Positions 5,543 through 9,922 of a stretch of 64,000 bases of DNA are shown in pieces; position 1 is the first letter of the stretch, and each line of letters opens with the position of its first letter. The position numbers and the translations under genes were made by a program. The stretch is from Escherichia coli (lineage in GTDB: Bacteria > Pseudomonadota > Gammaproteobacteria > Enterobacterales > Enterobacteriaceae). The notes under the pieces are model-generated. The model had not been told where the DNA came from, made no database searches, and saw only the letters and a list, made by a program, of their open reading frames with translations. The stretch lies in NCBI RefSeq assembly GCF_024502345.1, contig NZ_JALDNN010000001.1; one strand, given 5' to 3'.

Positions 5543-5861
5543 ACCACCGTTCGGATGGCATCGTTCTGATGTCGTCCGGCAATTTACTCAGCACTAATGG
5601 TTTTTAACTACCTGTTATATTTTTCACCAATTTATGATGATTTTTCTTCGCTAATCACGAACCCAACGCCGCTGGCTGGCTAATAAACAGACGTTATTTG
5701 ATCACTCTTTTTCGCCGTTATTTATCCCTTTAATTCCCTTTTCTAAAATGCCTGACAGTTCGCAGAATGAGATTTCGATCATGCAGCTAGTGCGATCCTG
5801 AACTAAGGTTTTCTGATACTTGAATACCGTTTTATTCGGTTTCGCCTAAGGAGAATGATTG

Positions 5862-7559
5862 ATGAAATCCCCCGCACCTTCTCGCCCGCAAAAAATGGCG
5901 TTAATTCCAGCCTGCATCTTTTTGTGTTTCGCTGCGCTATCGGTGCAGGCAGAAGAAACACCGGTAACGCCACAGCCGCCTGATATTTTATTAGGGCCGC
6001 TGTTTAATGATGTGCAAAACGCCAAGCTTTTTCCGGACCAAAAAACCTTTGCCGATGCCGTGCCGAACAGCGATCCGCTGATGATCCTTGCTGATTATCG
6101 GATGCAGCAAAACCAGAGCGGATTTGATCTGCGCCATTTCGTTAACGTCAATTTCACCCTGCCGAAAGAGGGCGAGAAATATGTTCCGCCAGAGGGGCAG
6201 TCACTGCGCGAACATATTGACGGACTTTGGCCGGTATTAACGCGTTCTACCGAAAACACCGAAAAATGGGATTCTCTGTTACCGCTGCCGGAACCTTATG
6301 TCGTGCCAGGCGGACGTTTTCGCGAGGTATATTACTGGGACAGTTACTTCACCATGTTAGGACTTGCCGAAAGCGGTCACTGGGATAAAGTCGCGGATAT
6401 GGTGGCCAATTTTGCTCATGAAATAGACACTTACGGTCATATTCCCAACGGCAACCGCAGTTACTATTTAAGCCGCTCGCAACCGCCCTTCTTTGCCCTG
6501 ATGGTAGAGTTACTGGCGCAGCATGAAGGCGATGCCGCGTTGAAGCAATACCTGCCGCAAATGCAAAAAGAATATGCTTACTGGATGGACGGTGTTGAAA
6601 ACCTGCAAGCCGGACAACAGGAAAAACGCGTTGTAAAACTTCAGGATGGTACCCTTCTCAACCGCTACTGGGACGATCGCGATACGCCACGACCAGAGTC
6701 ATGGGTGGAAGATATTGCCACCGCCAAAAGCAATCCGAATCGACCTGCCACTGAAATTTACCGCGACTTGCGCTCTGCCGCTGCGTCTGGCTGGGATTTC
6801 AGCTCGCGCTGGATGGACAACCCGCAGCAGTTAAATACCATACGCACCACCAGCATCGTACCGGTCGATCTGAACAGCCTGATGTTTAAAATGGAAAAAA
6901 TTCTCGCCCGCGCCAGCAAAGTTGCCGGAGATAACGCGATGGCAAACCAGTACGAAACGCTGGCAAATGCCCGTCAAAAAGGGATCGAAAAATACCTGTG
7001 GAACGATCAACAAGGCTGGTATGCCGATTACGACCTGAAAAGTCATAAAGTGCGCAATCAGTTAACCGCTGCCGCCCTGTTCCCGCTGTACGTCAATGCG
7101 GCAGCGAAAGATCGCGCCAGCAAAATGGCGACGGCGACGAAAACACATCTGCTGCAACCCGGCGGCCTGAACACCACGTCGGTGAAAAGTGGGCAACAAT
7201 GGGATGCGCCAAATGGTTGGGCACCGTTGCAGTGGATCGCGACAGAAGGATTACAAAACTACGGGCAAAAAGAGGTGGCGATGGACATTAGCTGGCACTT
7301 CCTGACCAATGTTCAGCACACCTATGACCGCGAGAAAAAGCTGGTGGAAAAGTATGATGTCAGCACCACCGGAACGGGGGGCGGCGGTGGCGAATATCCA
7401 TTACAGGATGGCTTTGGCTGGACCAATGGCGTGACGCTGAAAATGCTGGATTTGATCTGCCCGAAAGAGCAACCGTGTGACAATGTTCCGGCGACGCGTC
7501 CACTCAGTGAATCAACAACACAGCCGGTAAAACAAAAAGAGGCGGAACCTACGCCTTAA
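5862..7559 (+). CDS. treA: Periplasmic trehalase TreA
   Basis: 565 aa from [11 protein letters not shown]..., signal peptide plus glycoside hydrolase 37 body; matches remembered TreA except a slightly different C-terminal tail. Confidence 0.95.
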
Positions 7560-7588
7560 CTTTGCTGTATATCGAGGCTGTATATCGA

Positions 7589-7629
7589 GCAATGCCATTA
7601 TGTGCATAAAATTGGCATTGCTCTTTTTT
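7589..7629 (+). terminator. Rho-independent terminator downstream of treA
   Basis: Stem GCAATGCCA / TGGCATTGC with a 15-nt loop followed by TCTTTTTT. Confidence 0.55.
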
Positions 7630-7853
7630 CGCCACGAAATGCCCCCCACTCTACGGTCTATGCCTTTATTTTCTTTTATTAGAGAAGATTTTAATTTTAT
7701 TTTATCAATTTGTTAATCATTACACCTCTATTTATATTTTTCGCCACTCCGCCATTCTCCCTGACAATTTTCTTGTGGAACAAAGTGTTATTTAAGCAAC
7801 AAGCAAATCACTCTGTCTCTTTAGACAAATTTTGACATCAAACATGATTTTTT

Positions 7854-7877
7854 CGATATATATGTAAATATATAGCG
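7854..7877. promoter_or_regulatory. AT-rich dyad CGATATAT-atgtaa-ATATATAGCG, candidate ModE-type (molybdate-responsive) operator 25-48 bp upstream of the accessory operon start
   Basis: Contains TATAT-N7-TATAT flanked by CG; 20 of 24 positions self-complementary; resembles the ModE operator consensus as I recall it. Confidence 0.35.
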
Positions 7878-7901
7878 GTTTTAATTATCAGGATATAACT
7901 T

Positions 7902-8924
7902 ATGTCACTAACCAGACGGAGGTTTACACAGATTCTTGCGTCGACGTTGTTCCTGCATCATCTGCCTTCTTTTGCACAATCAGTCAAATTCTGGGCCTCA
8001 CTGACGCTTCCCGAAGCCCAAAACATTACACGCATCGTCAGCGCAGGTGCGCCCGCCGATTTGCTATTGCTGGCTGTCGCGCCAGAAAAAATGGTCGGTT
8101 TTTCCTCTTTTGATTTTGCCCGTCAGGCATTAATTCCATTGCCAGAGCACATTCGCCAGTTACCCAGGCTGGGACGACTCGCCGGGCGCGCCAGCACACT
8201 CTCGCTGGAAGGGCTTATGGCGTTACATCCCGATTTGGTCGTTGATTGCGGCAATACGGATGAAACCTGGATCTCCCAGGCACGGCAGGTTAGCGAACAG
8301 ACACAAATACCCTGGTTATTGCTTAACGGGAAACTGGCGCAATCAGCAGAACAGTTAACAACGCTTGGCAAAACGTTAGGCGAAGAGCATCGCGCCGCAG
8401 AACAAGCCAATCTCGCCAGCCGCTTCGTTGGTGAAGCTCAGGCATTCGCCGCCTCACCCGCCGCTAACCTCCGCTTTTATGCTGCGCGCGGTCCTCGAGG
8501 GCTGGAAACGGGCTTAAAGGGTTCGTTGCATACCGAGGCGGCGGAATTATTAGGTTTGCACAACGTCGCGCAAATAGCCGATCGCCACGGCCTGACACAG
8601 GTTTCCATGGAAAATCTCCTGCGCTGGCAGCCGGATATTATTCTGGTTCAGGAGGCCGTTACTGCAGATTTTATTCGTCGTGATCCTCTCTGGCATGGCG
8701 TGAAAGCCGTTGCGGAACAACGCATCTTATTTTTAAGTGGCTTGCCCTTTGGCTGGCTGGATGCCCCACCGGGAATCAACCGTCTTCTGGGATTACGCAG
8801 ACTTCACGCCTGGCTGGATCCCGCCATCAATCGCCAGTTTAAAAGTGACATGCAGCATTACGCCCAACTGTTCTGGCATTGTTCACTCAGTGACGCCGAC
8901 TATCAAAAATTGGTGGCGAGCTAA
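7902..8924 (+). CDS. Periplasmic substrate-binding protein, FecB/BtuF-like (class III), with twin-arginine-like N-terminus
   Basis: 340 aa; N-terminus MSLTRRRFTQILASTLFL... (RRxF Tat-like motif followed by hydrophobic stretch); first gene of a tightly packed operon. Confidence 0.8.
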   Translation: MSLTRRRFTQILASTLFLHHLPSFAQSVKFWASLTLPEAQNITRIVSAGAPADLLLLAVAPEKMVGFSSFDFARQALIPLPEHIRQLPRLGRLAGRASTLSLEGLMALHPDLVVDCGNTDETWISQARQVSEQTQIPWLLLNGKLAQSAEQLTTLGKTLGEEHRAAEQANLASRFVGEAQAFAASPAANLRFYAARGPRGLETGLKGSLHTEAAELLGLHNVAQIADRHGLTQVSMENLLRWQPDIILVQEAVTADFIRRDPLWHGVKAVAEQRILFLSGLPFGWLDAPPGINRLLGLRRLHAWLDPAINRQFKSDMQHYAQLFWHCSLSDADYQKLVAS

Positions 8925-9922
8925 TGAGAATCGTAAACGGATGTATTTTGCTGCTGGCAGCTATCAGTATCACTTTTGCCGCCGTAAGTGGGGCTTATCA
9001 TCTCGATATGCAGCAACTGCTGGCGCTAATTCTTCGTCAAGAAAATGTTCCTGTGCAGGAACAAATTGTCTTCTGGCAAATCCGCGTGCCGCGTATTCTT
9101 GCTGCGCTGTTACTGGGCGCGGCGCTGTTACTGGGCGCGGCGCTGGCAGGAGCCGGAACCACTTATCAGGGAATGTTGCGTAATCCCTTAGTTTCACCGG
9201 ATATTTTAGGCGTCTCCGCCGGTGCCGGACTTGGTGCCTGCGCGGCAATCCTGTGGGGATTATCCATTGTTTACATCCAGCTGTACGCATTTTGCGGCGG
9301 GCTGATGGTGGTCGCGGGCGTCTGGTTGATTACGCGTCGGGTGACCCGCCACGATCCGATCTTAACCCTGGTGCTGGTAGGCATTGCGTTAGGAACGTTG
9401 TGCGGAGCGGGGATATCGCTAATTAAAACGCTGGCCGATCCTTACACCCAGTTACCGTCAATTACCTTCTGGTTGCTGGGGGGACTGTCCACCGTGACCT
9501 TACGCGATCTCTGCTATGCTGCACCGATCATTCTCATTGGCTCCTTGCCCCTGTTTTTTCTCCGCTGGCGCATGAATTTACTCACGCTTTCCGACGACGA
9601 AGCCCGTTCGCTGGGACTGAACGTGACGCGTCTGCGCTTTGGATTGATTGTCTGCGCCACACTAATCACCGCCAGTACGGTAGCAATAGCGGGCATAATT
9701 GGTTGGGTCGGCCTGGTCGTTCCGCACATTGCCCGCTTGTTGACCGGTCATAACCATCAGCAGCTGTTGCCCATGGCAATGTGTACTGGCGCGATTCTGC
9801 TCCTGCTGACCGATACGCTGGCACGCAGCATTGGAACAACAGAAATCCCACTTGGCATTCTGACCGCTTTTGTTGGCGCACCGTTTTTCCTGCTTTTGTT
9901 GTTACGCGGAGGTCGCCAGTGA
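8924..9922 (+). CDS. ABC transporter permease, FecCD/BtuC family
   Basis: 332 aa, highly hydrophobic multi-TM protein; start overlaps the upstream stop (ATGA-type junction). Confidence 0.85.
   Translation: MRIVNGCILLLAAISITFAAVSGAYHLDMQQLLALILRQENVPVQEQIVFWQIRVPRILAALLLGAALLLGAALAGAGTTYQGMLRNPLVSPDILGVSAGAGLGACAAILWGLSIVYIQLYAFCGGLMVVAGVWLITRRVTRHDPILTLVLVGIALGTLCGAGISLIKTLADPYTQLPSITFWLLGGLSTVTLRDLCYAAPIILIGSLPLFFLRWRMNLLTLSDDEARSLGLNVTRLRFGLIVCATLITASTVAIAGIIGWVGLVVPHIARLLTGHNHQQLLPMAMCTGAILLLLTDTLARSIGTTEIPLGILTAFVGAPFFLLLLLRGGRQ

Follow-up and report, generated by a model that had tools for sequence, protein, structure and literature searches.

In Escherichia coli K-12 the modABC operon, which encodes the type I importer ModABC, is repressed by ModE-molybdate at an operator of 24 bp with the architecture CG-N-TATAT-N7-TAYAT-N2-CG, placed over the -10/start region directly 5' of the first gene of the uptake operon. 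The ModE sites of K-12 moaA, dmsA and napF follow the same consensus and are found upstream of, or away from, the core promoter, where they activate or modulate molybdoenzyme and cofactor genes. Another kind of importer for molybdate and tungstate is MolBC-A of Haemophilus influenzae (HI1470-1472), where molB is repressed by molybdate, an effect ascribed to an "unknown factor" (PMC4031551). In recent reviews ModE is the regulator of modABC, and molybdate is described as crossing the enterobacterial outer membrane through porins (PMC8264917).

The locus studied here has a 24-bp dyad with the same architecture as the modABC operator and in the same position relative to the first gene of an apparent uptake operon. 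The same trans-acting factor is very likely available to it: the window (the whole 64-kb stretch of DNA that was analyzed) has no modE itself, but of 5426 complete E. coli genomes 5391 carry the gene, which makes its presence in the source strain very likely. The two operators differ in that the candidate has no mismatch to the consensus and modA has two, and in that repression by ModE-molybdate is known for modA and predicted for the candidate. Instead of a type I ModABC system, the operon behind the candidate encodes a type II, FecCD/MolB-like importer and, besides it, ModD, a methyltransferase and a TonB-dependent receptor, and it is part of an accessory island that is absent from K-12. Compared with the moaA, dmsA and napF sites, the candidate is at a repressor position on a transporter operon.

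The dyad and the ModE consensus

Positions 7854-7877 of the window read CGATATATATGTAAATATATAGCG, which is self-complementary at 20 of 24 positions, with its first base 48 nt and its last base 24 nt 5' of the ATG at 7902 (Table 1). The 342-bp spacer between treA and the binding-protein gene (7560-7901) has a GC content of 32.5%, compared with 50.1% for the whole window. A preliminary description of this DNA had reported the 24-mer with its coordinates and symmetry, its distance to the first start codon and its AT-rich surroundings, and re-reading of the sequence bore out each of these. It had also interpreted the dyad as a ModE-type operator from a remembered pattern, TATAT-N7-TAYAT, which the candidate fits and which proved to be equivalent to the published E. 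coli ModE consensus, atCGnTATATA-N6-TATATAnCGat (PMC545781).

Table 1 Predicted features of the treA-island junction and of the operon, with positions counted from the first base of the window
Feature	Position	Strand	Description	Basis
treA intrinsic terminator	7587..7629	+	11-bp stem 7587-7597/7613-7623, then U-run	-24.6 kcal/mol, z = -3.1
-35-like hexamer TTGACA	7832..7837	+	16 bp 5' of the box	TTGAY conserved in upstream alignment
ModE operator (Mo-box, predicted)	7854..7877	.	CGATATATA-TGTAAA-TATATAGCG; half-sites 7854-7862 and 7869-7877	consensus, matrix, conservation
Shine-Dalgarno AGGA	7890..7893	+	8 nt 5' of ATG 7902	CAGGA conserved in enteric alignment
Periplasmic substrate-binding protein, PF01497 class	7902..8924	+	first gene of operon	ORF
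FecCD-family (type II) ABC permease	8924..9922	+		PDB search
ABC ATPase	9919..10677	+		annotation, profiles
Class I SAM-dependent methyltransferase	10687..11499	+		annotation, profiles
ModD, quinolinate phosphoribosyltransferase-like	11496..12350	+		TIGR01334, 501 bits, cut-off 178.85
TonB-dependent outer-membrane receptor	12376..14346	+	last gene of island	ORF, annotation, profiles

Aligned with this consensus, the candidate (ttCGaTATATA-TGTAAA-TATATAgCGgt) agrees at 16/16 specified core positions, and a search for CGNTATATA-N6-TATATANCG within three mismatches returned it, with none, as the sole match in the 64-kb window. The validated K-12 operators used for comparison and for the matrix were taken from NC_000913.3. 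One mismatch to the consensus was counted for moaA (CGCTATATACATGATTACATAGCG) and dmsA (CGATGTATACAAGCCTATATAGCG) and two for modA (CGTTATATTGTCGCCTACATAACG), so that the candidate is nearer to the consensus than these three operators. No ModE site was found within 120 bp of napF, but a site with two mismatches (GGTTATAAATATATTTATATAGCG) is located about 200 bp upstream, inside yojO; judging by its position, it is probably the footprinted ModE site.

The preliminary description had proposed weighing the candidate against AT-rich background with a matrix made from the modA, moaA, dmsA and napF sites. A symmetrised weight matrix built from these four K-12 sites only (with the napF-upstream site as the fourth) gave the candidate 27.1 bits, and the next best 24-mer in the window reached 14.5 bits, 12.6 lower. 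The training sites themselves scored 26.1-30.4 bits in-sample and 15.7-26.2 bits when left out, so that the candidate falls among the validated sites. As background we used 5 million positions of a first-order Markov sequence trained on the AT-rich spacer itself, in which the maximum was 19.8 bits and none of the 5 million positions reached the score of the candidate; two or fewer mismatches to the consensus occurred at only three positions, and one or none at no position. The candidate thus scores better than AT-rich background sequence.

Conservation of the box upstream of homologous transporters

An alignment of 20 binding-protein homologues was used to scan one genome per species, which gave 80 loci. 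The gammaproteobacterial set comprises 38 distinct loci, with L027 and L028 apparently being one locus recorded twice. In 33 of these 38 a box with 0-2 mismatches is located directly 5' of the orthologous binding-protein gene, and in most of the 33 it starts 43-58 bp before the start codon. At least 12 genera are represented, including Escherichia, Citrobacter, Yokenella, Serratia, Enterobacter, Klebsiella, Raoultella, Affinibrenneria, Pantoea, Erwinia and Shewanella. The remaining five loci are those of Citrobacter braakii, in which the gene is 5'-truncated and the promoter replaced, two Symbiopectobacterium symbionts with fragmented genes and boxes at three mismatches, a Lysobacteraceae metagenome bin without a box, and Lonepinella. 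The last of these, the only locus recovered from the Pasteurellaceae, the family of H. influenzae, has neither a clear Mo-box nor genes for ModD and the receptor.

When 18 upstream regions are aligned, the mean column identity is 37%, and the only conserved islands are a TTGAC/T hexamer and the box. Information content, calculated from 28 sites (23 distinct 24-mers), is 1.80 bits at the specified positions of the box, 0.70 at its N positions and 0.44 in the flanks, and this concentration at the specified positions points to selection on the very positions that ModE contacts. The half-sites are kept in Shewanella and the Pantoea/Erwinia clade, around an entirely different box spacer. Within E. 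coli the box occurs as two alleles, one common to the window and O157:H7 and the other reading CGCTATATGTGTAAGTATATAGCG, which still fits CG-N-TATAT-N7-TATAT-N2-CG.

A relaxed form of the box, CGNNATAT-N8-ATATNNCG with at most one mismatch, is present within 350 bp 5' of the gene in 57 of the 80 loci, alphaproteobacteria included. It matches 58 times in the 27.8 kb 5' of the gene and 12 times in 1,195 kb of other sequence, where most matches precede the receptor gene of the cluster in question. In Shewanella fodinae and S. indica the TonB-dependent receptor gene is itself directly preceded by a second perfect Mo-box (L036 11740; L042 11679), in clusters that lack ModD and keep the methyltransferase. 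In loci from Caulobacterales, Lautropia and Hyphomonadaceae the box is followed by the receptor gene and then by the binding-protein gene.

The putative alphaproteobacterial Mo-boxes of the ModE/MopA type resemble the candidate in being CG-N-(G/T)ATAT-N8-ATAT(C/A)-N-CG dyads, found 50-240 bp 5' of the homologous transporter genes of Rhizobium, Mesorhizobium, Ensifer and relatives, but their half-sites are GATAT/ATATC rather than TATATA and their operons are usually without ModD, methyltransferase and receptor. In loci from these genera (L045-L086) a distinct dyad has the form CG-N-GATATTCCATC(G/C)GATAT(C/A)-N-CG at 80-175 bp upstream, which looks like a taxon-specific variant of the Mo-box. 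A modA gene is divergent from and adjoins the homologous transporter in the alphaproteobacterial loci L047, L048, L057 and L068, and modA or ModE/Mop-like genes adjoin it in several loci of this class.

Phylogenetic footprinting, which is independent of the reasoning in the preliminary description, therefore concurs with its reading of the 24-mer as a ModE-type dyad. Judged by consensus, matrix and conservation together, the palindrome is very probably a genuine ModE binding site.

Promoter geometry and the direction of control

The hairpin and U-run that end treA imply that the island has a promoter of its own, whose location was deduced from the cross-species alignment. Between the TTGACA-like hexamer and the box the window has 16 bp; the distance is 17 bp in 11 enteric loci, 17-18 bp in the clade of Pantoea, Erwinia and Klebsiella BIGb0407 and 24 bp in two Shewanella species. 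The 16 bp of the window, instead of 17 bp, reflect a T-run (7848-7853) with one T fewer than in the other aligned E. coli; this could alter promoter strength. In the Pantoea/Erwinia/Klebsiella BIGb0407 clade the first six bases of the box are CATTAT, a canonical -10, whereas CGATAT, which the E. coli clade has at canonical spacing, makes a poor -10, and this leaves the exact promoter geometry uncertain. A sigma-70 promoter scan called no promoter at the site, since TTGACA is not followed by a good -10 hexamer; its only calls were two weak promoters farther 5'. As the box begins 16-18 bp past the hexamer, it would cover the -10 and/or the start site whatever the exact register, a position typical of repressors.

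The reading that we favor, to which we give a probability of roughly 0.85, is that the dyad is a ModE operator through which the six-gene operon would be repressed when molybdate suffices, with derepression under molybdenum starvation providing auxiliary uptake of molybdenum or tungsten. With sufficient cytoplasmic molybdate, a ModE dimer with bound oxyanion would occupy both CGnTATATA half-sites, and ModE carrying molybdate or tungstate over the -10/start region would block RNA polymerase and keep the operon silent. Under molybdenum starvation ModE would leave the DNA and the operon would be expressed, which would open an auxiliary, energised route of uptake for molybdenum or tungsten. From sequence we infer ModE occupancy, repression as its direction and the transported substrate, the direction following from the position of the box and from the logic of uptake systems.

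It is improbable, though the best placed of the alternatives, that ModE binds here but activates or only modulates the operon. ModE activates some promoters, among them those of moaA, dmsA and napF, and is annotated as a dual regulator in K-12; moreover, the weak -10 of the E. coli clade means that the promoter may need help. Against activation, the box is downstream of the -35-like hexamer and over -10/+1 in every clade, a metal normally shuts off its own uptake system, and the homologous molB of H. influenzae is repressed by molybdate (PMC4031551).

We consider it slightly less probable still that the dyad has been kept as core promoter DNA, i.e. a TATA-rich -10, or as a site for some other protein that binds AT-palindromes or for a nucleoid protein. 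Its left half-site does overlap the -10 position, the TGTAAA between the half-sites, which looks like an extended -10, shows unusual conservation among enterics, and the AT-rich island, probably horizontally acquired, is a likely target of H-NS. However, the downstream half-site is as well conserved as the upstream one, the flanking CG dinucleotides are invariant and the spacing is fixed, and the same dyad recurs at 24 bp from the -35 in Shewanella, in front of receptor genes and, with other spacers, in alphaproteobacteria. A chance palindrome, which the preliminary description had regarded as a real alternative and for which the 32% GC of the spacer speaks, is hardly credible, being refuted computationally by the background simulation, where neither one mismatch or fewer nor 27.1 bits was reached at any of the 5 million positions, and by conservation across genera against diverged flanks.

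The -35-like element (7832-7845 in the window) extends to TTGAY-N4-nnCAA in enteric orthologues (L010-L025), and its Yokenella version, TTGATACTGAACAA, is nearly the same as TTGATACCGAACAA, the FNR site 5' of K-12 dmsA. Should the extended-10-like TGTAAATAT within the box spacer serve as the -10, the TTGAY element would be centred near -40.5, a class II FNR position, and this centring would suggest that the operon is activated anaerobically besides being repressed by ModE. Taken alone, the E. coli TTGAC-N4-AACAT element (TTGACATCAAACAT) has three mismatches to an FNR site, which is not above chance.

The island and its likely substrate

The window is E. coli chromosome, in which the six genes are co-directional and follow treA (5859-7559, + strand) and the spacer, with ymgE, ycgR and emtA beyond them. 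The closest solved relative of the permease is H. influenzae HI1471, i.e. MolB (8.5e-62), with FhuB, HmuU and BtuC well behind. For the binding protein, the family profile found 4pag, 4ovk and MolA (HI_1472; 9.9e-14) as its best PDB matches, which puts MolA among the top three solved relatives of the family, although the single sequence is only distantly like MolA (5e-8); the closest, 4pag, is named only "periplasmic binding protein". By permease homology and cluster-A binding-protein homology the transporter would thus be placed with the MolBC-A-type (type II) importers. The gene that the preliminary description had called ModD-like is a strong ModD by its TIGR01334 score (Table 1), and its PDB relatives have the QPRTase fold. 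In almost every gammaproteobacterial locus, also where ModD is missing, the methyltransferase accompanies the transporter. In the receptor, only the plug domain matches solved receptors (ShuA, FecA and similar, ~1e-6), and every NCBIfam match is far below its cut-off; on this evidence the protein appears to be an uncharacterised receptor type.

RefSeq annotates the proteins as iron transport, the product of the first gene being labelled "iron ABC transporter substrate-binding protein", and this is a point against a role in molybdenum or tungsten uptake. In the promoter region, no sequence comes closer to the 19-bp Fur consensus than six mismatches, a level equalled by 24% of shuffles, so that control by Fur was rejected. 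A molybdenum cofactor (Moco) or cobalamin riboswitch was likewise rejected: 7400-8100 contains no Rfam family beyond two matches at chance level, and the leader is at most ~40 nt. With no Fur box above chance and no riboswitch, the iron annotation is left without regulatory support. The box, on the other hand, is in the regulatory region of genes for ModD, a MolB-like permease and a MolA-related binding protein, and a probable ModE operator on the promoter is the reason for re-reading the island, which is more likely a scavenging system for molybdenum or tungsten than an iron transporter.

The island spacer is present in 2144 of 5426 complete E. coli genomes (~40%), O157:H7 included. In K-12 MG1655, which lacks the island, the stretch corresponding to 7561-14322 of the window is replaced by ~620 bp with ycgY (L093 4057-4678), and homology picks up again for the last 23 bp of the receptor gene. 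Since homology resumes inside a gene of the island, the K-12 state is possibly a scar of deletion or replacement rather than an ancestral empty site. Some strains carry a decaying island: O18ac 873.10 has a frameshift in the binding-protein gene (L001 8344-9365), and in one O157:H7 genome (L088 10599-11411) the methyltransferase has an internal stop and treA is frameshifted as well. Directly 3' of the treA stop, at 7563-7588, the window has a 13-bp tandem duplication of GCTGTATATCGAG; this sequence is also doubled in O18ac 873.10 and is present as a single copy in O157:H7 and four other aligned E. coli. A dhaM-treA-island segment with the box (allele B) was found on the 195-kb plasmid p23AR0151A (NZ_CP195449.1), and 8 of the 2152 places that match the spacer are plasmid-borne.

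That a well-known operator class is represented here by a new instance, on an island absent from K-12, is well supported by the comparisons above. Because ModE regulons were defined in K-12, which lacks the island, the target cannot appear in K-12-based resources. Our literature search on ModE, Mo-box, TonB and ModD returned nothing that describes the site or the island and no binding or expression experiment on them, with an earlier, purely computational prediction being possible. More tentatively, and at somewhat less than even odds, the island may let molybdenum or tungsten pass the outer membrane by a ModE-repressed, TonB-energised route, perhaps in chelated form for later processing by ModD and the methyltransferase, with the MolBC-like importer acting at the inner membrane; the system would then be mis-annotated as iron transport in about 40% of E. 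coli, many enterics and Shewanella.

The predicted operator re-labels an "iron ABC transporter" island of ~40% of complete E. coli genomes as responsive to molybdenum or tungsten, and makes one regulated unit of the TonB-dependent receptor, the MolBC-like importer, ModD and the methyltransferase. It also suggests ModE as the molybdate-dependent regulator of the related mol genes of H. influenzae. If the proposal is true, the island would provide the first outer-membrane active transporter for molybdenum in Enterobacteria, and it would give a testable role to ModD, for which we know of no function. The finding bears on how molybdenum passes the outer membrane when it is scarce, and on anaerobic respiration in the inflamed gut.
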